Shown piece by piece: positions 18,994 to 45,543 of a stretch of DNA of 46,207 bases. The notes beneath the pieces were generated by a model, which ran no database searches, was not told the origin of the DNA, and was given only the letters and a program-made list of their open reading frames with translations. Made by a program: the position numbers and the translations under genes. Source of the DNA: Bacillota bacterium. Lineage in GTDB: Bacteria; Bacillota; UBA4882. Each line of letters begins with the position of its first letter. Within the stretch, counting starts at the first letter, position 1. The stretch is from NCBI GenBank assembly GCA_050942765.1, contig JBMNNY010000001.1, forward strand, positions 1-46,207, read 5' to 3'.

Positions 18994-19125
18994 GGAAGCG
19001 CGGGGGCGCATGGGGGCATGGCATGGGGGTGCGGGGGTGCGCATGAGCGTGGGAGCGCGTGCGCGGTTGGCGCGAAGGTGCGTGCGCGGCAGATGCGGGT
19101 GCGGCTGCAATTGGGAGTTTGAATT
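18994..19125. repeat. G-rich cryptically simple tract directly after the ctp stop, containing a four-run G5 motif
   Basis: Reiterated words are GCGCATG, GGGGGTGCG and GTGCGCG. G5 runs occur at 19002-06, 19012-16, 19025-29 and 19033-37. Confidence 0.85.
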
Positions 19126-19242
19126 TTGCGGGGATGCCTGGGAAACCCAGGCGATCCCCGTTTTGTTTTTGGTTTTGAAAGAGGGTTTTGCCGCCTGTGG
19201 TTGATCAATAAAAAGGAATGTTTACAGGCGGAGGGATGTACA

Positions 19243-20559
19243 TTGCCGGTGGGACCAACGCTGCGCATGATTTTTGCAGAATACGGAGAGCTGTTTTTTG
19301 GCCGGGGGCTGCCGGCATTTCTGTTGGTAATTTGCCTGACAGCTTGGGTTATTTCCCGTAACCGCATTTTGGAGCGCCAGATGATTGGACTAAACCGCCG
19401 AAGTTTGATGGCCGAAGTGCTTGAAAATTTGGCGGCTGGATCGATTGGCGGTTTTCTGGGAGCGCTGGTGTTTGTTTTTCTTGGGATTAGTGTCGATCTG
19501 ACTTCCTCGGCAATCACGGCACTCTGGGCGGCCGTGATCATCCTGGTCATGGTTGATCTGCGTTTTGTATGCGTTTCATATGCCGGGGGAATTGTGGCGC
19601 TGCTGCACTTACTCACCGGTTGGCCGCAGGTGAATGTGGCGGGGCTAATGGCACTGGTGGCGGTGCTGCATGGCGTTGAAGCGCTCCTCATTATACTTTC
19701 CGGCGCCAGAGGCGCAATCCCCATCTATCTGAAACAGCAGAATCAAGAGCAGCTGATTGGCGGATTTTCATTGCACAAGATCTGGCCGATCGCGGCGGTG
19801 ATCATTATGGGTCAGCGCAGCGCAGGTCCGGGATTGCTGGCCGCGCCAGCGCCGGGATGGTGGCCGCTGATCAAAAGTGATCTCGTACCGGCACCGGGCA
19901 ATGCCCTTACTTATATGATGCTGCCGCTCATGGTGGTCTTGGCTTATAGCGACTTAACCGTTACGATGCGACCGGGCGCAAAAGCGCGCCGTTCAGGGGG
20001 ATTACTGGCCCTTTACAGTGCAATTTTGCTGGCCATTTCAATTTTAGCCGGGGTAAGCAAGAGTATGGGGACGTTTTTCTCTTTTCTGGCTGCCATTTTC
20101 GGAACACTTGGGCATGAGTGGGTTATGGTGGTTTCGCGCCGCTTTGAAACGGAACGCCAGCCAATTTATCAGGCAAGCTCAGCGGGGCTGGCGGTTTTGG
20201 ATGTCATTGACGGCTCTCCGGCGGACAAAATGTGCATCACCAGCGGCGATGTTCTGACCAGCATAAACGGGCGGCTGGTGCGGACCCGACAGGACTTGGC
20301 TGAAGTCCTGGCACAAAAACCGCTATTGTTACACGTTTCGTTAATTGGTAAAGGTGGAGAGGAACGTCATGGAGAATATAGCGGATCATTCAATTATTTT
20401 GGGATTATCCCGGTACCAGGCCCCGGTGATCAGGTTTTTGTTGAAATTCGCCGGGGTGGTCTGTTGCGCAAGCTGGTCGATTGGCTGCGGGAAGGGAAAG
20501 GCGCAGGCGGGGGGCTGGCGGCAAAGGGGGAAGAAGATTGTCCTTCTGGCAAAGAATAA
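19243..20559 (+). CDS. Polytopic membrane protein with a C-terminal PDZ domain (possibly MinJ-like)
   Basis: There are several TM segments and then a PDZ block (VLDVIDGSPADKMCITSGDVLTSINGR). The TTG at 19243 is 7 nt after GGAGGG, and the ATG at 19267 is an alternative start. Its position after ftsEX-ctp resembles B. subtilis minJ (recalled from memory). Confidence 0.55.
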   Translation: MPVGPTLRMIFAEYGELFFGRGLPAFLLVICLTAWVISRNRILERQMIGLNRRSLMAEVLENLAAGSIGGFLGALVFVFLGISVDLTSSAITALWAAVIILVMVDLRFVCVSYAGGIVALLHLLTGWPQVNVAGLMALVAVLHGVEALLIILSGARGAIPIYLKQQNQEQLIGGFSLHKIWPIAAVIIMGQRSAGPGLLAAPAPGWWPLIKSDLVPAPGNALTYMMLPLMVVLAYSDLTVTMRPGAKARRSGGLLALYSAILLAISILAGVSKSMGTFFSFLAAIFGTLGHEWVMVVSRRFETERQPIYQASSAGLAVLDVIDGSPADKMCITSGDVLTSINGRLVRTRQDLAEVLAQKPLLLHVSLIGKGGEERHGEYSGSFNYFGIIPVPGPGDQVFVEIRRGGLLRKLVDWLREGKGAGGGLAAKGEEDCPSGKE

Positions 20560-22316
20560 AGCACTATTGGCAGCAATTGGATCATCAGTTGCGCCAAGCC
20601 GCTATCATTTATCTTGTTTTTGCAATTTGTGTGATTATGCTTCAGATATTTTTCAATATTGGCGAGATCGCCGGGTCGGGTGCGGATGTGGCTGAGGCCT
20701 TTGCAGTGCCAGGGGTGTCGGGTGTGCTTGGTGCGCCGGGGGCGTATGGTGCGTCGAGGTTGTATGGTGAGCCGGGGACGCCGGGTGTGCCTGGCGCGGA
20801 GAACGGAGAGGGGTTAGGGGTCAGAGAGCACCTGGGACGTGAAAAGGGCTTGGAGGCTGAGGGGCGGACCGAGGCCGGAGCTACGCACAAAGTGGATCTG
20901 ACCGACTTATCTCTCGCATTGGATCAAGAAATAGTTGCTAAGCTGGGCCTGGATAGGCGCGATCCGGGGGTGGCGATTATCCCCGCCCGTCATTCCTGGC
21001 AAATTGCTGTCAGACGGACCGGGAAAGTGGAATGGCATTGGGCGGAGTCTAGTCATCAATATGATCTGTCTGAGACTTTTGATCAGAAGGTTTCTGCCAA
21101 TCAGGTGAATTCTCTTAATCAGGAGAATTCTGCCGCCGGAAGAAGCATTGAGAATCTGCGAGCATCTGTACAGGCAGTTACAGATCACTGGGCGGATGGC
21201 AGCGGCAGAGAAGTAGCCGGGCACATAAACAAAGAAAACGGTATGATGATTCTAAATTTGGAACTTAAGCTGAAACCGGCTGAAGAAGAAGGCGCGCCAC
21301 TGCTGACCATGAGTAAATTGCAGATCAGGTTGCGTGAAACTCCAGCGGCGGTGGCAGCAATGACGGCAGTGATTGAAGGGGCGGCGGCGGACGGTATTGC
21401 GGGTGACGCAGACGGTGCAGGAGGCGCCGCCAGCACAAACGTCGCAAACCCGGGTTCCAAAACCGAGGATGGTGCCGGAGTAAAGTCCGATATTGGAAAC
21501 GTACCCGGGGCACACGATACGTCAGCAGGCTCAGGCACATCAGGAGCACCAGCATCAGGAGTGCCAGATGCATCAGGCGCGTGGGGAACGCCTGGAAAGA
21601 TTCCCATTCCAGGGGGCAGTGTTGGTGATCAGCCAGGAAGGTCGGCCCGGCCTAAAATATGCATTATCTTAGATGATGGAGGAGAAGCAGCACCTGATGT
21701 GGCAGAAGAGTTTTGGAAGCTTGGTTCTAAATGGCCTCTGGCGTTGGCAGTTTTGCCATATGCTCCATACAGTCGCGAACAGGCTGAGACGGCTAAAAGC
21801 CTCGGATTTGTAGTAATGCTGCACTTGCCGATGGAACCAATTGGCACCGAGAACCCGGGCGCAGGAGCGATTTTTTCGGAGCTTTCGGATGCAGAAATTC
21901 GCGAGCGCGTGCAAGAGGCTCTGGCAGCAGTCCCACAGGCGATCGGGGTAAATAATCATATGGGTTCCAAAGCCACATCTGATTCACGGGTAATGAAACT
22001 GGTCCTGTCGGAAGTCAAGCGCAATAATTTATTTTTCTTGGACAGCGTAACGATTGCCAGTTCGGTGGGTTATCAGGAAGCGCTGCGCATGGGCGTGCCG
22101 ACAGCCAAAAGACACGTCTTTCTGGACAATGTGGCGAGCGTCGAAGCCGTGCTGAAGCAGCTAGAGGAGCTCGTCCGTGTGGCACGTAACAAGGGAACGG
22201 CAATCGGCATTGGTCATATAAACAGGATCGCCACTGCGCAGGCGTTGGCAATTTTCCTGCCGCGACTTGAGGAGTTGGGGATCGATCTGGTTCCGCTGAC
22301 GGAGATTATTAAGTAG
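20538..22316 (+). CDS. Divergent polysaccharide deacetylase family protein (YibQ-like) with a TM anchor and a long low-complexity linker
   Basis: C-terminal blocks are ICIILDDGG, MLHLPMEP, GVNNHMGS, FFLDS and AIGIGH. The TTG at 20538 is 7 nt after AAGGGGG, and the ORF is open from 20481. Confidence 0.7.
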   Translation: MSFWQRIKHYWQQLDHQLRQAAIIYLVFAICVIMLQIFFNIGEIAGSGADVAEAFAVPGVSGVLGAPGAYGASRLYGEPGTPGVPGAENGEGLGVREHLGREKGLEAEGRTEAGATHKVDLTDLSLALDQEIVAKLGLDRRDPGVAIIPARHSWQIAVRRTGKVEWHWAESSHQYDLSETFDQKVSANQVNSLNQENSAAGRSIENLRASVQAVTDHWADGSGREVAGHINKENGMMILNLELKLKPAEEEGAPLLTMSKLQIRLRETPAAVAAMTAVIEGAAADGIAGDADGAGGAASTNVANPGSKTEDGAGVKSDIGNVPGAHDTSAGSGTSGAPASGVPDASGAWGTPGKIPIPGGSVGDQPGRSARPKICIILDDGGEAAPDVAEEFWKLGSKWPLALAVLPYAPYSREQAETAKSLGFVVMLHLPMEPIGTENPGAGAIFSELSDAEIRERVQEALAAVPQAIGVNNHMGSKATSDSRVMKLVLSEVKRNNLFFLDSVTIASSVGYQEALRMGVPTAKRHVFLDNVASVEAVLKQLEELVRVARNKGTAIGIGHINRIATAQALAIFLPRLEELGIDLVPLTEIIK

Positions 22317-22516
22317 GTCGTGCACATACCTGTGAGAAACTGTGCACAACCTGTTAATTCTGTGGATAAAAATCGGATATTTTGCGGATAAACCACGCTT
22401 GAACTGGGGAATATCTGTTTGTAAAACCGGTGGGACAAGCTAATTAAAGCGCTTTAGACATTCGGCTTGTTGATCCTTGAAGTTTCACTTTATTTCCGAT
22501 AGGATATAAAGGTGGA

Positions 22517-22569
22517 ATTAGAGTCCAGAATTTAGAACCCAGAATTAGGGTCCAGAATGAGAGTTCAAT
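22517..22569. repeat. Degenerate ~13-nt tandem repeat (ATTAGrGTCCAGA-like, 3-4 units) just upstream of tktA
   Basis: The units are attagagtccaga / atttagaacccaga / attagggtccaga / atgagagttcaat. Confidence 0.8.
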
Positions 22570-23431: not shown

Positions 23432-24471
23432 TGGCGGAGAAAATCGCAACCCGTGACGCATATGGTAAAGCTTTGGTAGCGCTGGGCGCCAAGAATAATG
23501 ATGTTGTAGTATTGGATGCCGATTTATCGAAATCGACGAAGACGGCCAAGTTTGGCGAAACATATCCGGAGCGCTTTTTCCAGATGGGTATCGCGGAGCA
23601 GGATTTGATGTCTACTGCGGCGGGATTGGCAACAGTCGGCAAGATTCCTTTTGCCAGCACTTTTGCGATATTTGCAACCGGACGAGCCTTTGAGCAGATT
23701 CGTAACAGTATTGCTTATCCGCATCTCAATGTTAAAGTGGCTGCCACGCATGCCGGTATTACTGTTGGCGAAGATGGCGGATCACACCAGTCGATTGAAG
23801 ATATTGCCCTGATGCGGGTATTGCCGGGCATGACCGTGATCGTGCCGGCGGATGGTCCGGAGGCAGAACAGGCAGTTTTCGCGGCGGCCCAACATGATGG
23901 TCCGGTATATTTGCGCTTCGGGCGCGGTGGCGTGCCGGTGATTCATGGAGCGGACTATAAGTTTGAAATAGGTAAGGCGGAAGTGCTGCGCGATGGTGGC
24001 GCCGGCGGTGCTGGTAGTGGAAGTTGCGGTTGCGGATGCAGTTGCGGCAGTGGATGCGGGACTGGCAACGACGGTGGCGCTGGCAGCGATGTGACAATTA
24101 TTGCCTGCGGCGTAATGGTGGAGGCGGCGTTGGCTGCAGCCGATACGTTGGCAGCGGAACACGGTATTGCAGCGCGGGTTATCAATATGGCGACCATCAA
24201 ACCGCTTGATGTAGCGGCAGTTAAGGCGGCAGCCTTGCAGACCGGCGCGATCGTCACTGCTGAAGAACACTCGGTAATCGGCGGTTTAGGCGCAGCGGTG
24301 GCGGAATATGTCGTCGGTGAGGGCGACTGTCCGGTACCGGTTGAGATGGTTGGCGTGAAGGACGTCTTCGGACAATCGGGCACCCCGGCCGAGTTGATGA
24401 AAGCATACGGGCTGACGGCGGCCGATATTGTTGCCGCGGCGAAGCGTGCGGTGGAGAGGAAGAGAAAGTAG
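23431..24471 (+). CDS. Transketolase, C-terminal (pyrimidine-binding) subunit, carrying a Gly/Cys-rich insertion
   Basis: Family motifs RDAYGKAL, FQMGIAEQDL and EDGGSHQSIEDIA are present. The start ATG overlaps the tktA stop (TAATG). An atypical 31-codon segment at 23995-24087 is discussed in the findings. Confidence 0.9.
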   Translation: MAEKIATRDAYGKALVALGAKNNDVVVLDADLSKSTKTAKFGETYPERFFQMGIAEQDLMSTAAGLATVGKIPFASTFAIFATGRAFEQIRNSIAYPHLNVKVAATHAGITVGEDGGSHQSIEDIALMRVLPGMTVIVPADGPEAEQAVFAAAQHDGPVYLRFGRGGVPVIHGADYKFEIGKAEVLRDGGAGGAGSGSCGCGCSCGSGCGTGNDGGAGSDVTIIACGVMVEAALAAADTLAAEHGIAARVINMATIKPLDVAAVKAAALQTGAIVTAEEHSVIGGLGAAVAEYVVGEGDCPVPVEMVGVKDVFGQSGTPAELMKAYGLTAADIVAAAKRAVERKRK

Positions 24472-25816: not shown

Positions 25817-28009
25817 ATGCCGCAATTTCAGCTGGTAGCGCCATATGAGCCGCGTGGCGACCAGCCCGAAGCTATTGAACAGCTTTGTGAAGGGCTCAAA
25901 AAAGGATACAAACATCAGGTGCTGCTGGGCGTGACCGGGTCCGGTAAGACATTTACCATGGCCAACGTTATTCAGAAGATTCAAAAACCTACGCTGGTAC
26001 TGGCGCACAATAAGACGCTGGCCGCACAGCTTTACAGCGAGTTTAAGGAGTTTTTCCCGCATAACGCGGTCGAGTATTTTGTCAGCTATTACGATTATTA
26101 TCAGCCGGAGGCGTACATCCCTCAGACTGATACCTATATTGAAAAAGACGCCACTATTAATGAAGAAATTGATCGTCTGCGTCACGCAGCCACTTCATCA
26201 CTATTTGAGCGGCGTGATGTCATTATTGTAGCCAGTGTTTCATGTATCTACGGCCTCGGTTCGCCGGAAGATTACAATGCTCTGACTCTGTCGCTTAAAT
26301 ATGGCGACTTCAGAGATCGGGACAAAATTTTGCGCAAACTGGTGGGCATTCAATATACCAGGAACGATCTCGGATTCGGCCGCGGCACGTTCAGGGTGCG
26401 CGGGGATGTTATTGAGATCATTCCGGTTTACGGTGAGAATATCATCCGAATTGAGTTATTTGGAGACGAAGTTGATCGAATCGTGGAAGTTGATCCGCTG
26501 ACCGGCGAAATTCTGCGTAAGCTGGACGAAGTCAAGATCTATCCGGCCAGCCATTATATTACGAGTGAAGAAAAGAAGAAGCGGGCGCTGGAGACGATTG
26601 AGGCGGAGCTGGAGGAGCAGCTGGCTTACTTTAATAGTCAGGGAAAGCTGCTGGAAGCGCAACGGCTGGAGATGCGCACCCGGCATGATCTGGAAATGAT
26701 TGCCGAGGTTGGTACGTGCAGTGGTATCGAAAACTATTCCAGGCATTTGACCGGGCGTGCTCCGGGAGAAGCGCCGGCTACTTTATTGGATTATTTCAAT
26801 GATGATTTTCTGTTATTCATAGATGAATCGCACGTTTCGGTGCCGCAGGTGGCGGCGATGTTCGGGGGCGACCGTTCACGTAAGTTGAATCTAGTCGAGC
26901 ACGGGTTTCGGCTGCCGTCTGCCCTCGATAACCGCCCGCTGACACTGGGTGAGTTTGAAAAGCGTATTAACCAGGTAGTTTATGTTTCTGCAACGCCAGC
27001 ACCGTATGAAATGTCGCGCGCTGAACAAGTCTGCGAGCAAATCATCCGACCGACCGGATTGGTTGATCCGGCGGTGGAGGTGCGGCCTGTACAAGGGCAG
27101 ATCGATGACTTGATTGCTGAAATCAAAGTGCGCGCGGAACGCAATGAACGCGTACTGGTTACCACCCTTACCAAGAAGATGGCGGAGGATTTGACCGATT
27201 ATCTTCAGGAAGCAGGTATCAGGGTGCGCTATATGCACTCTGAGATCGAAACCCTCGATCGGGTGGTCATTATTCGGGATTTGCGCCTTGGCAAGTTCGA
27301 TGTGCTGGTCGGAATCAATTTGTTACGTGAGGGACTTGACCTGCCGGAAGTGTCATTGGTGGCCATTTTGGATGCTGACCGAGAAGGATTTCTGCGCTCG
27401 GAGACGTCCCTGATTCAGACGATCGGCAGAGCAGCCCGTAATGTTCAGGGCCTTGTAATAATGTATGCCGACAATATTACGGATTCGATGCATAAGGCTA
27501 TTAATGAGACCGAGCGCCGGCGGCGCAAGCAGATGGAGTTCAATGAAAAGCACGGCATAACTCCTGAGACTATTCATAAGGAAGTACGTGCTATTATCCA
27601 GGCAGCGGAAGCCGCTGAAGAGAAAGTGGCATATCAGGTGACTTCTAAACCTGGTATGACCTGGGAAGAGATTGAAGTGGTCGCCAATAGGCTGGAAGAG
27701 GAGATGTTGGCGGCCGCCAAGGACCTGGATTTTGAGCGTGCAGCCAAGCTACGCGACGAAATGCTGGAATGGCGGAAACTGCTTCCGTCCACGGATGAGA
27801 AGATTCGTCCGGCAGGTGGCGGCAGGGGTGCTGGACGTGCCGCGGCGGGTGTCGGGAGTACTGGAAGCGCCGGTGGCGCCGGTGGTGCCGGCGGTGTTGG
27901 TGCTGGTGGCGTTGGTGGTGCTACGGGCACAGCGGACACAGCGGACTCAGAGCGTAGGCGCGGGTATGGACGCGGACGCAGTGGCGGTCGCGGACGCGGC
28001 CGGAAATAG
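25817..28009 (+). CDS. uvrB: Excinuclease ABC subunit B with an atypical Gly/Arg-rich C-terminal extension
   Basis: Motifs [25 protein letters not shown] and the UVR domain ([11 protein letters not shown]) are present. GGGAGG lies upstream of the ATG at 25817. Confidence 0.95.
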
Positions 28010-28232
28010 GTGGAGCATGTACACACAGGCTACACAGAAGACCCACAAGAGATGCACAAAAGGTGCGCATAGCGTGCACATATGATACACATTAGGTGCA
28101 CATGAGAAGCGCATAAGGTGCGCATATGATCTTCCGGGAGCTCGCCACAGGTTCACAAGGATAGCAATAGATAACAGATAACAGCAGATACACAAGGGCT
28201 GCACGGATGGTGCACAGGTAATTCACAGGTAG
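28010..28232. repeat. Cryptically simple tract (GTGCGCATA / TGCACA / CACAG words) between uvrB and uvrA
   Basis: Examples are ...ggtgcgcatagcgtgcacatatgatacacattaggtgcacatgagaagcgcataaggtgcgcatatga..., and later ...gatagcaatagataacagataacagcagatacac... Confidence 0.8.
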
Positions 28233-28284: not shown

Positions 28285-31200
28285 ATGAATAAAGACAAAA
28301 TTGTTCTGCACGGGGCACGCGAGCATAATCTTAAAAATATTGATATTGAGATACCACGCGATAAAATGGTCGTCATCACAGGCCTTTCCGGGTCTGGAAA
28401 ATCATCTTTGGCATTTGACACAATCTATGCCGAAGGTCAGCGGCGCTATATTGAATCCTTGTCATCATATGCACGGCAATTTTTAGGACAGATGGACAAG
28501 CCGGATGTGGATTACATCTCCGGTCTTTCGCCATCGATTGCCATTAATCAGAAGACGACCAGCAACAACCCGCGCTCCACTGTCGGAACGGTGACCGAAA
28601 TCTATGACTATCTAAGGCTGTTATATGCACGGATCGGGATTCCGCATTGTCCGGAATGCGGGAAGGAAATACGTTCGCAGACAGTAGAGCAGATGGTGGA
28701 TCAGGTTATCACCATGCCGGAAGGCACCAGAATACAGGTGCTGGCACCGGTAGTACGTGGTCGCAAGGGTGAATATCAAAAGCTATTTGAAGATTTGCGC
28801 AAAGATGGCTATGTGCGTGCCATCGTCAATGGCGAAATGCATGAGTTGACTGATGAGATCAAGCTGGAAAAGCAAAAGAAACATGAGATCGATGTTGTAA
28901 TCGATCGCCTGGTTGTCAGACCGGATATTGCCTCGCGTTTGGCGGATTCTCTGGAAACAGCGCTACGCCTGGCCAAGGGTATTGTAGTGATTGATGTCCT
29001 TGGTGATAAAGAAGGCAAGGGCGGTTCGCAAATTATTTTCTCGGAAAACTTTGCCTGTCCAGATTGCGGCGTGAGTTTCGAGGAAATCACACCACGCATG
29101 TTTTCATTTAATAGCCCGTATGGCGCTTGTCCTTCCTGCGCAGGTCTGGGCTTCAAAATGGAAATCGACCCGGAACGCGTGATCAATCCCGAACGCTCCA
29201 TTGAAGACGGCGGTATTCTGCCGTGGAGTTCGGATCCGGGTTCCTTTTCGCTACAAATTCTGCAGGCAGTTTGCGTTCACTGTGGCATCGATTCGTCGAA
29301 ACCGCTTGGCGAGTATACCATGGAGCAACTGCAGCCGATTCTCTATGGCACCGGGAAAGATAAGGTGCATGTGGTTTACGAGAATGACGGGCGCAGATGG
29401 GAGCAGAACAACCGGTTTGAAGGGGTCATTCCAAATCTGGAGCGTCGTTATCACCAGACACAGTCGGAGTGGATGAAAGCCGAAATCGAGAAGTATATGT
29501 CCACCAAGCCCTGTCAGGAATGCGGTGGCGCGCGGTTGCGTCCGGAGAGCCTGGCGGTAAAGATTGGCGGTTTGTCAATCCGGGATGTCAGCACGTTATC
29601 GATTATAAAGTGTAAGGAATTTTTCGCAGGGCTGGAGCTGAGCGAACGCGAACGTTTCATTGCCCGCCAGATTTTGAAGGAAATCAATGAGCGACTGGGC
29701 TTCCTTATCAATGTGGGACTTGATTATCTGACACTGGACCGCATGGCAGGCACATTGTCGGGTGGCGAGGCGCAGCGTATCAGGCTGGCAACGCAGATCG
29801 GTTCCAGTCTGGTCGGTGTGTTATATATTCTGGATGAGCCAAGCATCGGACTGCATCAGCGCGACAATATCCGCCTGATCAATGCATTACATGGCTTGCG
29901 AGATTTGGGCAATACCGTAATCGTGGTCGAACATGATCAGGAGACAATGGAGTATTCGGACTATATCATCGATATTGGGCCGGGAGCCGGTACCCATGGC
30001 GGTGAAGTGGTGGTGGCCGGGACAATCGACGAGATTAAAGCCTGTGAAGCTTCCATTACGGGGCAGTACTTGTCCGGAAAGCGCAGTATTCCGGTGCCTT
30101 CGCAGCGCCGGGCCGTGGAAAAGGGCTATTTGGAGATCAAGGGTGCGCGTGAGCATAACCTGAAGAATATTGACGTCAAGATTCCACTCGGTGTTATGAC
30201 TTGTGTGACCGGAGTTTCAGGTTCCGGCAAGAGTACCTTGATTAACGGGATTCTTTATCAGAGGCTGGCGCGAGATTTGAACCGCGCGAATACTAAACCC
30301 GGCGACCACGATGATTTGATCGGCTGGAAGAATCTTGACAAGGTGATTGAAATTGATCAGTCACCGATTGGCAGGACACCGCGTTCCAATCCGGCCACTT
30401 ATACCGGGGTGTTTGATAACATTCGCGAAGTTTTCGCCCAGACGGTAGAGGCAAAGGCGCGCGGGTATACGGCCAGCCGTTTCAGCTTTAATGTCAAGGG
30501 CGGACGCTGTGAGGCCTGTCATGGAGACGGCATCAATAAGATTGAGATGCATTTCCTGCCGGACGTATATGTTCCCTGTGATGTATGCAAAGGCAAGCGG
30601 TATAACCGCGAAACACTGGAAGTCAAGTATAAGGGGAAAAACATTGCGGACGTTTTGGAAATGAGAGTGGAAGAGGCTCTGGAGTTTTTTCAGAACGTGC
30701 CGAAAATTCATCGGAAGATTCAGACCCTTTTTGATGTAGGTCTGGGCTATGTGCAGCTGGGTCAGCCTGCTACGACGCTTTCGGGTGGCGAGGCGCAGCG
30801 TGTCAAACTGGCTACTGAGTTGTCGCGACGCAGCAATGGCGGCACGATTTATATTCTCGATGAACCCACTACGGGATTGCATTTCGCAGATGTCCATAAG
30901 TTGCTGGATGTTTTGCAGGCTTTGGTGGACGCCGGCTCAACAATGGTGATTATTGAGCACAATCTCGACGTCATTAAGCAAGCCGACTATATCATCGATC
31001 TCGGCCCGGAGGGCGGCGAGCGGGGCGGTACGGTGATTGCCTGCGGGACTCCGGAGGAAGTGGCGCAGGTGGAAGCTTCGCATACCGGACGCTTTTTGCG
31101 TAAGGTGCTGCCCGACTGGGAGAGGGCGGCAGCGAAGGGGACAGCGGCTGTGCCGGCGGTGGCGAAGACAAAGGCGACAACAACTGCGACAAAAGCGGCG

Positions 31201-34171: not shown

Positions 34172-35311
34172 GTGGAAGAAGAACGCCTTATGATCCTAAA
34201 GATGCTGGAAGAAGGCAAAATTACCAGCGAAGAGGCTGCTGCTTTATTTGATGCTTTGGATGATCATGCAGAAAGAGTAGTCACAATCATTCCTCCTCAG
34301 GTACATGTGCACACCGATGACGAGAACAGTGGCGAGTGTTGCGAATGCGACGCAGAAGACGCCTGGGATGAATTCAGCCGCCGCATGGAGGATTTCGGCG
34401 AAAGAGTTGGCAAAGCTGCCGAAGAATTGAGCGAAAGACTAAGCGACAAATTTTCGCGGTTGGGCGAAGAATTAGGAGAGCGTGCCTATGGCTTTTCTTT
34501 TGGGAACTGGCTGTTTGGTGCGAACTACCGATTTGATGATACCATTTCCTCCGATACGTTCGGCACTCAGGAAGGTTGCCTGGAAGTGGAATTGAGGGGC
34601 GTTAATGGCAACCTTACCATCTCCACCTGGGATGGAACCGGGATGCTGGCTGAAATACGCAAGTCGTTGCGAGCTGGCAGTGAGGAAGAGGCCATCGAAC
34701 ACAGCAAAAAAATGATTATATCCGAGATCACTCCCCAGCGTTGCTGTTTGGTGGCTCGCGATCAGCACAACGCCTCGGCCAGCATCAAGTTACATGTGCC
34801 AAAGAATCGGCAGTATAAGCTGGTAATCAGAACAACCAATGGTAACATTCGCATTAACGACATTGAGGCTCTGACAGGCGACATCGTGACAACGAACGGA
34901 AAAATTCTGTTTGGGGATTTCAAAGGTGAGACTTTGCGTTTCCACTCGACCAATGGCCGGATTAGCGGTGATTTGAGTGCAGAAGGCTGCGAGGCTACTA
35001 CCGTCAATGGTCGCATTGAAATCGAGCTTGACGGTACGCCAGGAGGCAATTATCAGCTCAGAACGACAAACGGCCGTATCGAGCTTGGTGTTCCCAGTGC
35101 ATGGCCATGTATGATCGAAGCCAGAAGCAACTGGGGTTCAATTGATATCGACCTCGACAACTTGACATATCATGAACGGACGACATCTTCCGCCGGAGGA
35201 AATAAGCGCATCAGAGCCAGCCGCACCGGTCAGGGGAATGCTTCCGAACTAAGGCTGCTAACTTCGAATGGCTCGATCAAAATTAGGAAGCGTGGTGTAT
35301 CACATGAATGA
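34172..35311 (+). CDS. LiaX/YvlB-like protein: N-terminal SHOCT-like helical domain plus DUF4097 beta-strand repeat domain
   Basis: The N-terminus is EERLMILKMLEEGKITSEEAAALFDAL. The C-terminal half has reiterated TNGxI / NGxI strands (TTNGNIRIND, TNGKILFGD, STNGRISGD, TVNGRIEIE, TTNGRIELG, SNGSIKIR). The GTG start is 6 nt after AAGGAGGG. Confidence 0.75.
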   Translation: MEEERLMILKMLEEGKITSEEAAALFDALDDHAERVVTIIPPQVHVHTDDENSGECCECDAEDAWDEFSRRMEDFGERVGKAAEELSERLSDKFSRLGEELGERAYGFSFGNWLFGANYRFDDTISSDTFGTQEGCLEVELRGVNGNLTISTWDGTGMLAEIRKSLRAGSEEEAIEHSKKMIISEITPQRCCLVARDQHNASASIKLHVPKNRQYKLVIRTTNGNIRINDIEALTGDIVTTNGKILFGDFKGETLRFHSTNGRISGDLSAEGCEATTVNGRIEIELDGTPGGNYQLRTTNGRIELGVPSAWPCMIEARSNWGSIDIDLDNLTYHERTTSSAGGNKRIRASRTGQGNASELRLLTSNGSIKIRKRGVSHE

Positions 35312-36762: not shown

Positions 36763-36783
36763 TACCGGGCTCCTGCTTAATTC

Positions 36784-36825
36784 CTCCCCTCTTACTGGGC
36801 CGTAAGGGGGGAGGGTTATTATTTC
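36784..36825 (+). terminator. Rho-independent terminator of the LiaX-like cluster
   Basis: CCTCCCCTCTTAC pairs with GTAAGGGGGGAGG (13 bp with one G-T wobble), followed by GTTATTATTT. Confidence 0.75.
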
Positions 36826-36889
36826 TGGAGGAGAATTACTTATGAGATCGAAATAGTACCTATAGGGTAGAAAATAGCAGTATGTGGCA

Positions 36890-36930
36890 CGCATAGACGA
36901 AACAGATCGTGATGCGCATAGACGAAACAG
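36890..36930. repeat. 16-nt direct repeat CGCATAGACGAAACAG x2 (25-nt period), followed by ACGTGGC(G)CAC x2
   Basis: Read directly from the sequence: 36890-36905 is identical to 36915-36930. Confidence 0.9.
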
Positions 36931-36994
36931 GACGTGGCGCACAACGTGGCACACGTAGAACGAATTAAAGCAAGACACGCAACGGAGGGGCAGT

Positions 36995-37808: not shown

Positions 37809-38762
37809 GTGATTGTCACTGTTGGATTTAACTTAGGAATCGAAAGCAAGTACACTGTTGAAAGCCTCGGGCGGAGTGCGGGCGCTGGCGGTCCCATTCC
37901 AGCTTTGGCAACAGAACATGGCGCTTTTGGTGGCGCAATTGCAGCAACCCGTGTGGCTGTTGAGTTGGGGGAAGAGACTATTGTCACCGGAATAGCTGGC
38001 GGAATGACTGGCAAGTGGCTTTGTGAGATACTGACCAAGGATCGCATTACACATGACTTTTGGCAGATTGATGAAAATACGCCCCAAAACCTGATTATTG
38101 TTGATCAAGAAACGCAGTGTTCTTACCGGATCAATCAGCATGGGCTGAATTTAGATCCGGGCGTTGCGAGTGCAGTGGTTGACGGAGTATCAGATAAGAT
38201 CAGGAGCTTATCAGAAACAGGTGGAGTGACAATCTTTTCCGGAGCGCTGCCTTCCGGTTTGACTACTGATTTATACAGCGGCTTAATACGAAAGGTAGCC
38301 CAGCATAGGGCGACTACGGTGCTTAATACCGAGGGCGTGAACCTTCGGGAAATGCAGTCAGCGCGTCCTTATCTGCTCGTAGTCTCGCGTGCGAAATTGG
38401 AAGCCTGGCTTGGCATGCAGAATTGCGCTTTGGATCAGCTGCTGGAAGGTGTCATTCAATTATCGCTGGCTGGCAGTGAAATAGTAGCGCTGTCTTTAGG
38501 GACTGATGGGGCTGTGGTGGCCTGGGGCAAGGACGTATATCTGGCACAGCCGCCGAATGTTAATGCCGCTAATTATGAAGGATGCGAAGATACTCTGACG
38601 GCCGGTTTTGCCGTAGGGCTGGCCCGGCGCTGGGGTGCTCAGGAAACCATCCGCACGGCCATGGCCGCAGTGATCGCCAATGAGATCGCTCCCAAGCCCG
38701 GACGACTTAGATTGCTGGACGTGGAAGCATTATGGGAGCAGGTACAGGTGAGCAGGATCTGA
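37809..38762 (+). CDS. PfkB/ribokinase-family carbohydrate kinase-like protein with divergent active-site motifs
   Basis: The N-terminus VIVTVGFNLGIESKY matches the 1-phosphofructokinase-type start. The C-terminal EGCEDTLTAGF sits where the DTxGAGDxFxAGF motif is expected. The GTG at 37809 follows GAGGG, and the ORF is open from 37776. Confidence 0.6.
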   Translation: MIVTVGFNLGIESKYTVESLGRSAGAGGPIPALATEHGAFGGAIAATRVAVELGEETIVTGIAGGMTGKWLCEILTKDRITHDFWQIDENTPQNLIIVDQETQCSYRINQHGLNLDPGVASAVVDGVSDKIRSLSETGGVTIFSGALPSGLTTDLYSGLIRKVAQHRATTVLNTEGVNLREMQSARPYLLVVSRAKLEAWLGMQNCALDQLLEGVIQLSLAGSEIVALSLGTDGAVVAWGKDVYLAQPPNVNAANYEGCEDTLTAGFAVGLARRWGAQETIRTAMAAVIANEIAPKPGRLRLLDVEALWEQVQVSRI

Positions 38763-38831
38763 TGAAGCGCTGAGGGTCTGAGAGGCGTGAGGGGCGAGTG
38801 GGGCGAGTGGGGCGAGTGGCGCGTGCGGGAA
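38760..38831. repeat. Eight-unit degenerate 9-nt tandem array beginning at the stop codon
   Basis: The units are tgatgaagc / gctgagggt / ctgagaggc / gtgaggggc / gagtggggc / gagtggggc / gagtggcgc / gtgcgggaa. Confidence 0.9.
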
Positions 38832-38913
38832 ATGAAGCACGGGGCGGCATACCCATAGCCCCGCACTGAGTAATGGGTAATGGGTTGGAATACTAGATGG
38901 ATGGAAGCAGCGC

Positions 38914-38939
38914 CGCTGAGGCAATCAGCGGTTTTTTTA
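38914..38939 (+). terminator. Rho-independent terminator after the PfkB-like gene
   Basis: The hairpin is CCGCTGA-GGCAA-TCAGCGG, followed by TTTTTTT. Confidence 0.85.
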
Positions 38940-39330
38940 TTTGCTGGGCGGTGCAATATGGAAAAAATGGCGGTAGTTCGCAGCAGGAATCGCAAAAGCG
39001 ATTTCGAATTTAGTATCCCGAGTTATGTAAACGATATTATGTTAACTATAATCGAGAATTATGACCGCCGATCTGTCAATTCGATACCATCGTGATGTAG
39101 TGGAAAATAGTGATTCACATGGTATAAGATACCGGGAACTTGACAGAAGGAAATAAAGTTTAGGGGCAGAATTAGTTAACATAACATCGGCGATCAGATT
39201 CATCGCAACACATTATTGCATAATAGCAGCGCATAACAACAGCGCAAATCATCAACGCAATTTATCAATGCAATTTATCCACGCAACTTTATGATTAAGT
39301 TTACCGTTCCGCACAGGCGGGCTTACGGCA

Positions 39331-39345
39331 GAAAGGAGGTGAACC
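39331..39345 (+). promoter_or_regulatory. Extended Shine-Dalgarno-like element in the porin leader (STAB-SD-like, or the RBS of a 20-codon leader ORF at 39347-39409)
   Basis: AGAAAGGAGGTGAAC matches 14 of 15 positions of the expected complement of the 16S 3' tail (AGAAAGGAGGTGATC). It lies 220 nt upstream of the porin start and is followed by TTG and 19 more sense codons (20 in all) before TAG. Confidence 0.45.
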
Positions 39346-39564
39346 TTGGTAAACCGTTTGTCAGCCACCGGAAGGGTAATTAAAAGACGCAGCACAAATC
39401 AAGCTTAGACGCAGCAAACTACGCAGCAATAATCACGGCAATTATGACAGCCGGAGGAAGAAATAGAGGTAACTTGGAGACTTTATTCCTCCTCCAGACA
39501 CAGCAGCAAACTTCAGGCAAATGCACTCTAAACACACTACTAGATCTACCAAGGAGGAACAACA

Positions 39565-40671
39565 ATGAAAAAACTAATCCCTGTTCTCGTTGCAGCATTG
39601 ATCCTGATGTTGGCTTCTCCGGTCTTTGCGGCCGAAGTCAAAGTCACTGGTTCCGTTTCAGGTATTACAGGGTATGAAGGCGGACTGTTCTACGAGGGTG
39701 GCGCTACGATAGGCGCTGAAGCTCAGATCACTGATAACATCAAAGCCGGTATCGGCTTCAACTTCAGCAATGGTCTGACTGACACCATCCAGAACGGTAT
39801 GTCATGGTCGGATTTCGCAGCGATGGTTGACAAAGCGTATATTGAAACCAGCGGCGCTTTGGTAACCGGTCTGCCCAGCATGACCACCCGTCTTGGTACT
39901 CAGGAAATCGGTTACTCGATTTTCAATGCCTACAACATCAAAGGCGAAGGTATCGGTATTAGAGACCTTGCAATTGGCCCCGTAGCCCTCGCCGGATTCC
40001 AGTCCTGGAATCCTGCTGAGCAGGTTCGTGGTGGTCAGATTAGCGTCAATCCGCTCGAAGGACTGAGCGTTGCCGCTAACGTAATTCACGCCGGCGCCGA
40101 TGATACCCAGCAGCTTTCCGCTGCTCTCGAGGCCGCTGTGCAGCCGATCGAGCCGCTGACAATCAACGCTGCTATGGGTTATATGCATGATGCTGATGAT
40201 CCGGCATTTGCATTCGCAGGTGGCGCTGAGTATCAGGTGCTCCCGTACCTCGGTGTGCACGCTGGCGCTCGTAAAATCGATACCAACTACGCTCCGCGTT
40301 ATATGTACTCCAAGCTCTCCAACAATGAAATCGGCTTCAACGGTGGTGTAACCGTTTCTGCTTTCGGCGCAACCCTGGATACCAACGTCGACTACGCTAA
40401 GGCAATCGAAGTAGTCGGTGAGATGGACGAAGTCGTCTACACTGGTGAGATGACCCTTGAGCGTCCGTTCTCAGTTGCTGGTATGAACTTCACTCCGTCT
40501 TATGCTCTGACCCTGAGCAAGGCCGACGAAGGCGAAATCGGTATCACTGAGCATGTACTTTCACTCGGTTACGAAGCCCCGAACAGCCTCACTATCACCG
40601 GTGGCGTCGACATTACCGATCTGGAAGACATCAAACCGTTCGTAAACGCTGCGATGGAAGTGGAATTCTAA
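39565..40671 (+). CDS. Outer-membrane beta-barrel porin-like protein
   Basis: The signal peptide is MKKLIPVLVAALILMLASPVFA/AE. Alternating amphipathic strands run throughout and are rich in Gly and aromatic residues. The C-terminus ...AAMEVEF ends in Phe. A strong AAGGAGG RBS is present. Confidence 0.75.
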   Translation: MKKLIPVLVAALILMLASPVFAAEVKVTGSVSGITGYEGGLFYEGGATIGAEAQITDNIKAGIGFNFSNGLTDTIQNGMSWSDFAAMVDKAYIETSGALVTGLPSMTTRLGTQEIGYSIFNAYNIKGEGIGIRDLAIGPVALAGFQSWNPAEQVRGGQISVNPLEGLSVAANVIHAGADDTQQLSAALEAAVQPIEPLTINAAMGYMHDADDPAFAFAGGAEYQVLPYLGVHAGARKIDTNYAPRYMYSKLSNNEIGFNGGVTVSAFGATLDTNVDYAKAIEVVGEMDEVVYTGEMTLERPFSVAGMNFTPSYALTLSKADEGEIGITEHVLSLGYEAPNSLTITGGVDITDLEDIKPFVNAAMEVEF

Positions 40672-40771
40672 GCCTAGCTTAGAGTTCAGTGGGTTCTGTG
40701 TGAGCCCCGCCCAGAAGGAGCTCAACTGAACCAAGGGTATCTAATCGAATCTGAATCAGAATAGCTTCAGG

Positions 40772-40808
40772 AACAGGCCGGCTCAATAAAAGAGTCGGCC
40801 TGTTTTGT
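40772..40808 (+). terminator. Rho-independent terminator after the porin gene
   Basis: AACAGGCCGGCTC pairs with GAGTCGGCCTGTT (1 mismatch), followed by TTG/T-rich sequence. Confidence 0.75.
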
Positions 40809-40810
40809 CG

Positions 40811-41075
40811 CGGTGTTTTGCAGGCGGTGTTTTGCGTAACGGTGTTTTGGGAGCGGTTGCGGCGGGTGGTTGCGGGAGTGGTTGCGGCGGGTGGTTGCGG
40901 GAGCGGTTGCGGCGAGCGGTTGCGGCGGGAGGTTGCGGGAGCGGTTGCAGCGGGTGGTTGCGGGAGCGGTTGCGGCGAGCGGTGCGTTGCGAGTGGTGCG
41001 CGACGCACCGTGCGCGGTGTGCGATACGCGGTGTACGGCGTGCGGTGCGCGACGCGTGCAAGCGCCGGTGCAGGT
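40811..41075. repeat. Composite minisatellite: GGTGTTTTG x3, then about 5.5 copies of a 25-nt unit GGGAGCGGTTGCGGCGGGTGGTTGC (40849-40985), then GTGCGCGACGC-type words
   Basis: Units were read directly at 40849-73, 40874-98, 40899-923, 40924-36 (half unit), 40937-61 and 40962-85. Confidence 0.95.
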
Positions 41076-41305
41076 TTAGATTTGATAAATCGCAGGATAA
41101 TATAGAAGCGGCGCTTTGTCAGCGACAGCTCCTTATCGGCGATGGCAATGATATTTGCGACGGCGAAGGTATTTGCAGCGGCAACGGTGACAGCACTCTG
41201 CCAATGACAGCTCCTTATCAAAGAAGGAAGAAAAAGCCACAGGTAGAAAACTAAAATTGAAAGAATGACGAGAGTGAAAATAATCAAATTGTAATGGGGG
41301 TTAAT

Positions 41306-42376
41306 ATGGTGATAAATTTGGATGATCAAAATGCCATTACAGCACTGGATCCAGGTGGCATGGGAAAAGCCATTTCCGCGTTTGCCGATCAATGCCGGAA
41401 GGCTCGCCAAATTGGGAAAGCAGCTGAAATACCGGATAATTATCGGGATGTAGATAATATTGTCGTGCTGGGTATGGGAGGTTCCGCAATCGGAGGGGAC
41501 TTAATCCGATCGCTGTTTGAAGGGGAACTCACCAAGCCTTTCCAAGTCAACAGAGATTATGATATACCGGCGTTTGTGGGGCCGCAGACACTGGTGGCGG
41601 CTTGCAGCTATTCTGGCAATACTGAGGAAACGCTTTCGGGATATGCGGAAGCCCGGCGTAAGGGAGCCAAGATTATCGCGTTTTGCACGGGTGGTAAGTT
41701 GAAGGAGCTTGCCGAGGCCGACGGCTATCCGTTGGTTTTGATCCCAGGAGGGCTTTCCCCGCGGGCGGCGCTGGGATACTCGTTTCATCCAATTATGGCA
41801 GTCCTGGAAAAGCTGGGGTTCCTGTCGCCCAAGGATCGCGAGTTTGATGAGATGCTGACCGTGGTGGAGCAGATTCAGGTGCGTATGGATGTGGCAGTGC
41901 CCGAGACTGAGAATTTCGCCAAACAGCTGGCGCGCAAAGTATTTGGCAAGCTGCCGGTGATTTATGGGGCCGGTGGTTGGCGCACTACAGTGGCGGCCCG
42001 CTGGAAGGGTCAGTTCAATGAGAACGCCAAGAACATAGCATACTGGAACGCATTCCCGGAACTTAATCATAATGAGACGGTCGGGTGGGAAGCGCCAGCA
42101 GAAGTTAATGTTTTGGCGCATGTCATCATTTTACGAGATCGCGAGGAGCCGCCACGTCTGGCCAAGCGCGTGGAAGTCACGCGCGAGCTGATGTCCTCTG
42201 CAGTGGCGGGCTTTACGGAGATCAGGGCTGAAGGGACGTCCGCGTTGGCGAGAATGTTTTCACTGGTATATGTCGGTGATTTCGTAAGCTATTACCTGAG
42301 CGCTCTGAATGGCATTGATCCATCGCCAGTGCGGGTGATTGATAAGCTTAAGGCCGAGTTGGCGAAGCTGGGCTGA
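41306..42376 (+). CDS. Bifunctional phosphoglucose/phosphomannose isomerase family protein (SIS domains)
   Basis: Family blocks are VVLGMGGSAIGGDL, SYSGNTEETL and NHNE. The start is ambiguous (ATG 41294 or ATG 41306). Confidence 0.75.
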   Translation: MVINLDDQNAITALDPGGMGKAISAFADQCRKARQIGKAAEIPDNYRDVDNIVVLGMGGSAIGGDLIRSLFEGELTKPFQVNRDYDIPAFVGPQTLVAACSYSGNTEETLSGYAEARRKGAKIIAFCTGGKLKELAEADGYPLVLIPGGLSPRAALGYSFHPIMAVLEKLGFLSPKDREFDEMLTVVEQIQVRMDVAVPETENFAKQLARKVFGKLPVIYGAGGWRTTVAARWKGQFNENAKNIAYWNAFPELNHNETVGWEAPAEVNVLAHVIILRDREEPPRLAKRVEVTRELMSSAVAGFTEIRAEGTSALARMFSLVYVGDFVSYYLSALNGIDPSPVRVIDKLKAELAKLG

Positions 42377-42388
42377 GCCGGAGAAGGG

Positions 42389-42430
42389 CTGGGATAGGCT
42401 TGGATAGGCCTGGATAGGCCTGGATAGGCT
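42389..42430. repeat. 10-nt tandem repeat TGGATAGGCY x4 just after the pgi-like stop
   Basis: The tract reads ctgggataggc ttggataggcc tggataggcc tggataggct. Confidence 0.9.
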
Positions 42431-44661: not shown

Positions 44662-44748
44662 AAAACTATTTGTCGCTTCGAAAGCGACCTTCGGGCTGGT
44701 TGGATTTGTTATCCTCTAATTGATCAATCAAGAACAAGGGGGATAACG

Positions 44749-45426
44749 ATGAGAGCCAAAATTACCGAGTTAGTGTTTATCCTGGACAGAAGCGGATCGA
44801 TGTCTGGACTTGAGGGCGACACAATCGGCGGTTTTAACTCTATGCTGGCCAAACAGAAGGAAGAATCGGGCGAGGCTATCGTAACTACTGTGTTATTTAA
44901 TGATCGTTACGAGCTTCTGCATGACAGAACCGATATTAAGGGTGTTCGGCCTATTACTGAAAAAGAGTATTTTGTCGGCGGAAACACCGCCCTGCTCGAC
45001 GCGATTGGGAAGACGATCAACAAAATCAGCAACGCTCAGAAACATATTTGTGATGAGCAGCGTGCTAACAAAGTTCTGTTCGTGATAATTACGGACGGGA
45101 TGGAAAACTCCAGCCGCGAATTTAGTTACGACAAGATAAAGGGAATGATTGAGACTCAGAAGAAAGCACATGACTGGGAGTTCCTTTTTCTGGGGGCCAA
45201 TATTGACGCCATTTCTGAGGCGGCGAAGATTGGTATAGGGGCGAACAGAGCTGTCAATTACCATGCTGACAGTCAAGGTACAATGCAAAACTTCAAAACA
45301 CTTTCGAATGTCGTGACCTGTATGCAAGTGAGTAACGGCATTCCTGATGACTGGAAAAAGGACATTGAGGACGACTTTGAAAACCGTATTAATCGCAATA
45401 GCGATAAGCGCGGCAATCGGCAATAA
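44749..45426 (+). CDS. Small cytoplasmic von Willebrand factor A (vWA) domain protein
   Basis: The MIDAS motif is FILDRSGSMSG, with downstream GGNTALLDAIG and FVIITDGMENSS. AGGGGGA RBS is present. Confidence 0.8.
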   Translation: MRAKITELVFILDRSGSMSGLEGDTIGGFNSMLAKQKEESGEAIVTTVLFNDRYELLHDRTDIKGVRPITEKEYFVGGNTALLDAIGKTINKISNAQKHICDEQRANKVLFVIITDGMENSSREFSYDKIKGMIETQKKAHDWEFLFLGANIDAISEAAKIGIGANRAVNYHADSQGTMQNFKTLSNVVTCMQVSNGIPDDWKKDIEDDFENRINRNSDKRGNRQ

Positions 45427-45543
45427 TCGCGATAATCGATAATAAACGCGACAATCGGTAATAACCGCAAAAACCGCAATAACCTCGATAGCCGCAACAA
45501 CCGCGACAACTTCAATAACCGCAACAACCGCGATAACTGCAGT
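45388..45543. repeat. Cryptically simple AATCGC/AACCGC tract running through the vWA stop codon; its last part is nine consecutive 9-nt units (45463-45543)
   Basis: The units are aaccgcaaa / aaccgcaat / aacctcgat / agccgcaac / aaccgcgac / aacttcaat / aaccgcaac / aaccgcgat / aactgcagt, in phase with the vWA reading frame. Confidence 0.9.

Follow-up and report, generated by a model that had tools for sequence, protein, structure and literature searches.

Bacterial genomes normally purge simple sequence and usually have a deletion bias, and the variable number tandem repeat (VNTR) or minisatellite loci that they contain are used for typing by multiple-locus VNTR analysis (MLVA). The mycobacterial interspersed repetitive units (MIRUs) of Supply et al. 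(1997) are said to be tandem repeats in operon spacers which often touch the flanking stop or start codons and vary in copy number among strains; they reportedly form one dispersed family with units of 40-100 bp and small open reading frames (ORFs) in phase with the neighbouring genes. The term cryptic simplicity is used below in the sense that was reportedly given to it by Tautz, Trick and Dover in 1986. The closest documented precedent for the sequences described here, the stop-proximal heptamers of Xanthomonas and Nostoc, is related to the cyanobacterial short tandemly repeated repetitive (STRR) heptamers of Calothrix. These intergenic G-rich repeats, GGGAATC in Xanthomonas and GGGGA(C/T)T in Nostoc/Anabaena, are intergenic in 89-93% of cases, prefer co-oriented ORF pairs, are under-represented between divergent ORFs and are mostly found 0-50 bp from a stop codon or overlapping it; among close relatives they are highly variable in length and sequence, and the authors, who identified no function for them, put slippage forward as the cause (Rehm et al. 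2015 PLoS One, PMC4692102). Here we analyse a 46,207-nt stretch of DNA (contig JBMNNY010000001.1, at its full length called the window in the following) from an uncultured Bacillota species of anaerobic digesters, in which degenerate short-period tandem repeats accompany many gene ends, and we regard it as probable that these tracts result from a lineage-specific birth and decay of minisatellites that is driven by slippage and filtered by selection.

The initial annotation had listed nine such tracts between 18994 and 45543, the last of them misprinted as 45388-43 instead of 45388-45543, and all nine are present where they had been placed, with sequences that read as claimed. Together with two additional tracts, and with the interval listed as 39180-39440 divided for reasons given below, they are:

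18994-19125, + strand: tract 1, a stutter with GCGCATG/GGGGGTGCG which extends over the whole spacer between the CtpB-like protease gene, from its stop codon on, and the PDZ-protein gene.
28010-28232, + strand: tract 2, GTGCGCATA / GTGCACA in degenerate units of 11/22 nt, which occupy all the space between uvrB and uvrA, beginning with the stop codon.
34005-34130, + strand: tract 3, an array of about 11 degenerate 7-nt units (CGCATAG) in a spacer inside an operon, starting on the stop of DUF2089.
36880-36975, + strand: tract 4, a weaker stutter with GCGCATAGACGAAACAG in two copies and GTGGCRCAC.
38760-38831, + strand: tract 5, 9-nt units (GGGGCGAGT) from the stop codon of pfkB on, ending ahead of the terminator at 38912-38932.
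39194-39295, + strand: tract 6a, about 100 nt of simple sequence with 13-nt units (CGCAATTTATCAA), inserted in this species only, within a conserved leader.
39380-39440, + strand: ACGCAGCA motifs in three to four copies, kept in four species and not a stutter.
40811-41075, + strand: tract 7, a minisatellite of 12.5/25 nt (GGGAGCGGTTGC GGCGGGTGGTTGC) with an alternating segment of the GTGCGCG type behind it.
42389-42430, + strand: tract 8, 4.8 copies of a 10-nt unit (GGCTTGGATA) in the PGI-ROK spacer, from 12 nt past the stop codon.
45388-45543, + strand: tract 9, 9/18/27-nt units (AACCGCAAC) which set in 38 nt ahead of the stop of the YegL-like vWA gene and extend as far as the terminator (45573-45600).
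11932-11991, + strand: additional tract outside the range first covered, 3.8 copies of a 16-nt unit across the DUF2663 stop, in a spacer between convergent genes.
22515-22564, + strand: additional tract, 3.8 copies of a 13-nt unit just 5' of the transketolase start and about 200 nt past the preceding stop codon.

Arrays were returned by Tandem Repeats Finder (TRF) for eight of the nine tracts, i.e., for every listed one except 39380-39440 as the second half of 39180-39440, and their copies are degenerate (68-95% matches). In a 5-mer self-similarity scan, 3.0% of all 80-nt windows exceed the 99.9th percentile of dinucleotide shuffles, and the excess over these shuffled controls is thus about 30-fold. 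The windows above threshold merge into 24 tracts, every listed one among them, of which 16 are intergenic, with an intergenic share of the window of only 13.6%, and 8 are located in protein tails or linkers. The interval 39180-39440 had been taken for one tract, and this holds for the simple insertion at 39194-39295 but not for 39380-39440, which was rejected as a stutter tract given that four species share its ACGCAGCA motifs, which belong to a conserved leader of about 570 nt. The tracts are no assembly artefacts, because they are reproduced in all of about 20 independent assemblies of the same species (99.2-100% identity), identically or nearly so; these assemblies derive from different samples and assemblers (JGI, ENA, Logan) and were found by exact-protein look-up. 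The terminators are indeed separate from the tracts: scans place them at 31361, 36782, 38912 and 45573, and a further one at 40772, which is conserved in three species, was read directly, while the tracts themselves lack the hairpin and T-run of an intrinsic terminator.

Within the species, about 24 loci were compared over some 33 kb, with 8-20 strains available for tracts 2, 3, 4, 6a and 9. With the exception of one in-frame CAG codon (19735), all multi-base indels fall in simple sequence, and those in tracts are unit-sized, namely -9 nt at 27928, -13 nt at 31551, +9 nt at 38790, +10 nt at 42421, and -13, a different -13, -63 and -88 nt in 40896-40952. Whole-unit copy number hence differs among strains, in the manner of a VNTR, in tract 5 (one additional 9-nt unit in strain L100), in tract 8 (one additional 10-nt unit in strain L102), in tract 7 with its four length alleles, in the in-frame tail of UvrB (one 9-nt unit deleted in strain L083) and in the 13-nt unit at 31551, which belongs to a TGTCCCCAATGGA array. 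The active slippage that the initial annotation had envisaged is borne out by these gains and losses, and the tracts are not invariant among related strains. Single nucleotide polymorphisms (SNPs) reach a density of 13.6/kb in the tracts (without tract 7, where the alignment is ambiguous), as compared to 7.7/kb for the remaining intergenic sequence (p = 0.12) and 3.3/kb for coding sequence (p = 4e-5), and 18 of the 23 tract SNPs are transitions. Since the SNP density is the highest of all classes, there is no detectable sequence constraint on the tracts. Tract 2, for example, has six SNPs, all of them transitions, and one 1-nt indel but no unit-sized length change, and in tract 1 a single G is deleted in one strain.

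Comparisons beyond the species were based on relatives located via homologues of the DUF2089 and vWA proteins, comprising one sister species (L091 and L229, 85-87% at the amino acid level), a third species L232 (74%) and the more distant L094 (77% on DUF2089). Among the GTDB species genomes, the top UvrB matches are uncultured Bacillota metagenome-assembled genomes (MAGs), with UBA4882 as the nearest genome (93% over a 4-kb fragment), followed by UBA5486, AS23ysBPME_266 and DTU087 (71-73%); UBA4882 is represented by a 4.2-kb contig that ends within uvrB and contributes nothing to the comparison of spacers. In the related species synteny is kept, and alignment is possible for terminators, promoters and ribosome-binding sites but not for the tracts; orthologous spacers in L091, L229 and L232 contain other units, no tract at all, or a tract where the window has none. 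The DUF2089-LiaX spacer comprises 164 nt with CGCATAG units in the window, 136 nt with GCGAC/CAACAC units in L091, and 31 nt without repeat in L094; likewise, the PGI-ROK spacer, 85 nt with its 10-nt units in the window, is a repeat-free 42 nt in L229, and in L232 it measures 92 nt and consists of GAGTAAGC units. Tract 9 is missing in L229 (spacer of 61 nt) and L232 (114 nt), and the spacer of tract 7 shrinks from 634 to 532 and 284 nt across species, the sister species retaining about 70 nt of tract and L232 none. At the position of tract 4 there is no tract in L091, which has one before the terminator instead, and in a four-species alignment tract 6a is absent from L091 and L094, while L232 acquired about 50 nt with CACCGAAGTGT units independently at this point. 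Downstream of pfkB, L091 and L232 have different G-run tracts and in L094 the gene leads directly to the terminator without any tract. Conversely, a tract separates the LiaX-like and SHOCT genes of L091 and L232 at a place where the genes of the window overlap. These differences imply that tracts arise, change and disappear again within the time that it takes species to diverge.

Expressed as separate tracts per 10 kb, tract density in the window is 6.8 in the region 15.8-38 kb and 7.1 in 18-46 kb, and it is 8.3 in 8.4 kb beyond the window. Similar values are found in the tract-rich relatives, with 9.4 in the sister contig L229 and 6.3 in the third species L232, in contrast to 0.76, 1.37, 0.48 and 0 in the more distant relatives L094, L002, L003 and L004, respectively. 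Among 72 control uvrB loci taken from other bacteria, the median is 1.4 and the highest value 6.0, so that the density that had been called unusual for a bacterial chromosome does exceed all of them but only moderately so, at the top of the bacterial range. High tract density therefore appears as the trait of a narrow clade at the upper end of what is found in bacteria, not far beyond it.

With respect to their position, six of the nine listed tracts (18994, 28010, 34005, 38760, 42389 and 45388) lie at or run through a stop codon as had been stated, but those at 36880, 39180 and 40811 do not, being located downstream of a terminator and within the upstream region of the next gene. Tract 4 follows a terminator (36782-36815) and immediately precedes the Cof-type HAD gene; it is therefore a 5' flank and not a 3' untranslated region (3' UTR), and tract 7 lies between the terminator at 40772-40808 and the promoter of the PGI/PMI gene. 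At the vWA gene the last 8-10 codons consist of tract 9 sequence, since the homologues have only 215-220 amino acids (aa) as compared to 225 in the window. Although six tracts abut or cross a stop codon, the small sample of 22 co-directional spacers from the clade, each 115 nt or longer, has no stop-side excess, the 50 nt past the stop codon being no simpler than the 50 nt before the ribosome-binding site (12 vs. 10, Wilcoxon p = 0.45). Co-directional spacers are, in turn, simpler than divergent, promoter-bearing ones (median 14.5 vs. 6.0, one-sided p = 0.009). A mutational process biased to gene ends, as suggested initially, is thus not supported, in view of the lack of a stop-side excess, of the three tracts behind terminators and of the presence of the same texture in proteins. 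That tracts start on stop codons can be explained by the fact that a tandem duplication which includes or follows the stop leaves the protein unchanged.

The in-frame occurrence of such sequence in UvrB, UvrA, the C-terminal transketolase subunit TktC, PBP1A and the YibQ-like deacetylase, which had also been pointed out before, is supported by translation and by profile coverage. The coding features are:

27811-28009, + strand: C-terminal tail of UvrB, 77 aa, in frame (GAGGAGG...), with TRF periods of 6, 9, 12, 15 and 18.
31131-31326, + strand: C-terminal tail of UvrA, an in-frame simple tract of about 70 aa.
23981-24100, + strand: in-frame insert of about 29 aa in the C-terminal transketolase subunit, rich in Gly, Cys and Ser (GAGGAGSGSCGCGCSCGSGCGTGNDGGA), between conserved blocks.
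20538-21600, + strand: N-terminal low-complexity linker of the YibQ-like divergent polysaccharide deacetylase, with several tracts of 18-nt period.
12090-12210 (approximate coordinates), - strand: low-complexity stretch (KSESKSESGDGGGQRSGDGGGVRRRD) in the C-terminal tail of PBP1A.
34353-34362, + strand: deletion junction with 10-nt direct repeats (CAGAAGACGC) in the LiaX-like gene (34172-35311).

Periods divisible by three are found in 9 of the 13 coding TRF arrays but in only 10 of the 32 non-coding ones (Fisher's exact test, p = 0.043), and the four coding arrays with other periods are low-scoring matches of about two copies. Non-coding periods are mostly no multiples of three, with values of 7, 8, 10, 11, 13, 14, 19, 22 and 25 nt. 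In the LiaX-like gene, other strains have an in-frame, cryptically simple acidic linker of 117 or 132 nt (DDEDDECEDDEREDDERDDYDEND...), which is absent from the allele of the window, a deletion between the 10-nt direct repeats. Taken together, the lack of asymmetry between the two sides of a spacer, the deficit in divergent spacers and the period-three bias in coding DNA fit a general repeat process, the products of which are kept where they are harmless; the placement of the tracts is explained by selection clearing constrained DNA. As an aside, a Cys-rich low-complexity loop within a core enzyme, as in the transketolase insert, is unusual.

According to the scheme that we favour, short motifs would be amplified repeatedly into tandem arrays with periods of 6-25 nt in this and at least two related species, most likely by slipped-strand mispairing or by recombination between short direct repeats. 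The arrays would then decay rapidly by point substitutions, mostly transitions, and by the gain and loss of units, leaving cryptically simple tracts. Their persistence would be set by selection, which may tolerate them in operon-internal spacers between a stop codon and the next ribosome-binding site, in 3' UTRs before terminators and in the dead space behind terminators, and in coding DNA probably only as in-frame expansions of tolerant tails, linkers and loops. It would accordingly be this filter, and not a targeting mechanism, that puts many tracts on or just after stop codons. We further infer that slippage has also seeded the tracts, and that its rate is raised in the clade.

Several observations weigh against so simple an account. 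As regards density, the window tops the control distribution without lying far outside of it (6.8 vs. a maximum of 6.0 per 10 kb), and in tracts 2, 3, 4, 6a and 9 slippage is not currently visible, as they vary among strains by SNPs and 1-nt indels only. The sense-strand G-run tracts 3' of pfkB in three species could reflect common descent or a selected property. Moreover, the statement that each locus has its own unit is correct insofar as units and periods differ from locus to locus, but words of 4 to 7 nt are common to the tracts. CGCA/TGCG is enriched about 5-fold and occurs in eight of ten tract segments. The heptamer GCGCATA is found in seven different spacers, with 13 of its 14 copies on the + strand and 12 of 14 intergenic; it was dismissed as an enriched shared motif, as the total of 14 copies is not above chance (8.9 ± 3.1) and only their distribution is skewed. 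Purine-pyrimidine alternation amounts to 0.60-0.80 in most tracts, being abundant in tract 2, as compared to 0.49 in the window, and alternating runs of at least 8 nt make up 12.8% of tract bases vs. 2.1% elsewhere. This vocabulary of CGCA and alternation is also present in the sister species, weak in L232 and not found in the unrelated controls, and the CGCA enrichment is absent from the 8-kb extension beyond the window. The shared CGCA/TGCG words, the + strand bias of GCGCATA and the alternation are not predicted by plain slippage of arbitrary seeds and could point to a sequence-specific initiating process or to a weak selected property. For the alternation a neutral route is possible as well, in that transition-biased decay of alternating dinucleotide runs would keep the order of purines and pyrimidines.

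It would accordingly be conceivable, if improbable in our judgement, that selection maintains the tracts as cis elements, either in DNA or in intercistronic or 3'-UTR RNA, with only a core (CGCA/UGCG, G-runs) and the array form conserved, and that they would serve as a platform for a multimeric RNA-binding protein, as a G-quadruplex- or Z-DNA-prone spacer, or as a tuner of translational coupling or mRNA stability. Such a role is in keeping with the wide occurrence of the CGCA/TGCG core and the strand bias of GCGCATA, with the conserved ACGCAGCA motifs of the leader, which show that a related word can be selected, and with the higher frequency of tracts in co-directional than in divergent spacers. 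G-quadruplex sequence motifs are confined to tract 1, which has 69 G in 132 nt including four sense-strand G5 runs, and tract 5 (G3-4, five runs); with the G-run tracts behind pfkB in three species, and with the transcribed G-quadruplex repeats beside stop codons in Xanthomonas and Nostoc (PMC4692102), they add to the case. However, no sequence class has a higher SNP density than the tracts, with SNPs at 28112 and 28121 hitting CGCA cores themselves, junctions with or without a tract differ in sister species, and distant relatives have none. The CGCA enrichment is inconstant, as outlined above, the position relative to terminators is heterogeneous, and the same texture occurs in frame within proteins. 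RNA folding of ten tract segments likewise gave no convincing extra stability, with z-scores of -0.25 to -2.6, the best of which is due to the palindromic 10-nt units of tract 8. The Rfam 15 covariance models had no match at gathering score in the window, and a permissive scan of 38760-41310 returned only a sub-threshold Thr_leader match on a terminator. By composition, Rho utilisation (rut) sites were rejected as well, as G equals or exceeds C in most tracts (69/24, 60/50, 43/42) and C exceeds G only in tract 9 (47/33), and composition and anatomy also led to the rejection of an architecture like that of clustered regularly interspaced short palindromic repeats (CRISPR), of terminators and of mobile-element remnants. 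Positive evidence for a function of the tracts was thus not obtained from Rfam, folding or composition, and the selected 3'-UTR function proposed in the initial annotation is not supported, in view of the SNP density, the turnover of units, the absence from distant relatives and the unremarkable folding.

Quite improbable, too, is a process other than slippage that seeds tracts at gene ends, e.g., templated filler synthesis during end-joining or primer-template realignment that recopies the stop context. The 7-nt stop context does recur in its own tract beyond the contexts of 22 other genes for vWA and DUF2089, and weakly so for uvrB and PGI, stop triplets are enriched in tracts 3, 5, 8 and 9 (z = 2.0-3.3), and the units are degenerate and not clean copies. 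Yet the recurrence fails for ctpB and pfkB, at 10 nt with at most two mismatches only the stop-crossing vWA tract passes, and tracts also occur behind terminators and in proteins without a nearby stop; the length changes in the population are in-register gains and losses of units, which is the signature of slippage, and no reverse transcriptase or end-joining gene is located within the window. With four of six cases weakly supported at 7 nt and only vWA at 10 nt, stop-codon seeding was not retained as a finding. The genuine low-complexity tails of UvrB, UvrA and PBP1A might suggest that stop-adjacent tracts are former C-terminal tails of this kind which an upstream stop has rendered non-coding, the more so as the periods of tracts 5 and 9 (9, 18 and 27 nt) are multiples of three, with the upstream frame open for 30-37 codons past the stop, and as the vWA ORF extends 8-10 codons into tract 9. 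This is very doubtful, however, because most non-coding periods are no multiples of three, the vWA homologues are uniformly 215-220 aa long without a long tail, and tracts behind terminators cannot be ex-tails. Essentially refuted, finally, is an origin as assembly artefacts or as a decayed dispersed mobile element of the repetitive extragenic palindromic (REP), bacterial interspersed mosaic element (BIME) or MITE type (transposable elements that are miniature and have inverted repeats). Short-read assemblers can mis-build repeats, and a dispersed 35-nt TGTCCCCAAT family does occur in the window, but the tracts reappear in assemblies from different assemblers and samples, and they are not one element at many loci, as REP, BIME, MITE or MIRU sequences are: neither a recurrence of any tract sequence elsewhere in the window or at related loci nor terminal inverted repeats were found, and only the words of 4 to 7 nt are shared. 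A search of metagenome contigs with the 14-mer AACCTGTCCCCAAT gave single chance matches in unrelated contigs only.

Some further non-coding sequences stand out beside the tracts. The dispersed repeat just mentioned has a length of about 35 nt, the consensus AAACCTGTCCCCAATCGGGTCAAAAYGAGCCAAAC and the core TGTCCCCAAT, and occurs in both orientations and in clusters of two to seven in several spacers (9022-9175 and 31445-31598 in the window, 15388-15457 in L095, 14413-14496 in L232 and 1-62 in L091); it is conserved among species of the clade, with a strain-polymorphic 13-nt subunit just 5' of uvrC, and could be a REP-like element or an array of binding sites. The leader that contains tract 6a and the ACGCAGCA motifs comprises about 570 nt (38940-39564) 5' of the gene for a putative outer-membrane beta-barrel protein (39565-40671) and is strongly conserved in four species (aligned with L091 7560-8060, L232 4660-5206 and L094 7800-8292). 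It includes a perfect Shine-Dalgarno-like GGAGGTGA far 5' of the start codon, and two hairpins are predicted in which several base pairs are compensatory; in one of these hairpins GGAGGAAG pairs with CTTCCTCC. No Rfam match to the leader was found, and it may be a cis-regulatory leader of a new type that belongs to an abundant envelope protein. In the macro-vWA spacer (44662-44748; L229 4959-5050, L232 9911-10000), three species share a small hairpin, GTCGCTTTCGAAGCGAC, with TTGAAA in L229 and L232, together with its flanks, and this spacer contrasts with its fast-changing neighbours.

The gene order of the window is ftsEX, M23 peptidase, CtpB-like protease, PDZ protein, YibQ-like deacetylase, split transketolase, uvrB, uvrA and uvrC, followed by a DUF2089/LiaX-like cluster, Cof HAD phosphatase, pfkB, the putative outer-membrane beta-barrel protein, PGI/PMI, ROK kinase, a macro-domain protein and the YegL-like vWA protein. 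At 15-46 kb, nearly all genes are on the + strand. This near-uniform orientation over 30 kb and the strong positive GC skew of +0.1 to +0.24 over 15000-46207 are consistent with a leading-strand segment, and the tracts share the + strand purine excess of this region. Long ORFs run through tract 7, at 40679-41410 on the - strand and at 40805-41254 on the + strand, and the JGI annotation calls a gene of 177-202 aa there; as the strain alleles differ by 13 and 88 nt, and most of the four length changes are no multiples of three, these ORF calls are spurious.

If neutral slippage is indeed the source, the spacers of this lineage should be hypervariable strain markers, and the tracts are likely to cause fragmented short-read MAGs in the group as well as spurious ORF calls such as the 202-aa gene across tract 7; caution would then also be required in interpreting the low-complexity tails of UvrA and UvrB and the transketolase insert. 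The wider question is why the clade produces or tolerates so much simple sequence, and the repair-gene content of tract-rich as compared to tract-poor relatives would make it testable. We hold it to be rather unlikely that the clade possesses some unusual, heritable means of generating simple sequence, or puts it to a use that is under weak selection, so that spacers are actively expanded. Such a generator could be a lost or altered mismatch repair, a slippage-prone replicase or templated filler synthesis with a preference for CGCA or alternating seeds, and the uses could be CGCA arrays as platforms for RNA-binding proteins or G-quadruplex- and Z-DNA-prone spacers that uncouple adjacent cistrons. 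An active expansion of spacers would oppose the deletion bias that is usual in bacteria.

Compared with the known systems, the tracts of the window are real and unusually dense, yet conceptually ordinary simple sequence, most likely generated by slippage, and no new kind of element. Tracts 1 and 5 are G-run tracts in the same style as the heptamers of Xanthomonas and Nostoc. These, however, employ a single unit, in a preferred copy number, at over 100 loci across the genome, whereas unit and period (6-25 nt) differ from locus to locus in the window, where most tracts are not of the G-quadruplex type and some are found behind terminators or in frame within proteins. MIRUs are likewise tandem, located in operon spacers and variable in copy number by strain, but the tracts described here are mutually unrelated, have units of only 6-25 nt and lack the ORF logic of that family. 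With VNTR loci and cryptic simplicity they have in common the locus-specific arrays, the unit-sized differences among strains, the coding periods in threes and the decay by point mutation. They differ from typical VNTR loci in their number, with about 7 tracts per 10 kb as compared to a control median of 1.4 and most spacers of more than 100 nt affected, and in a propensity that is clade-wide and combined with a shared vocabulary of CGCA words and alternating purines and pyrimidines.

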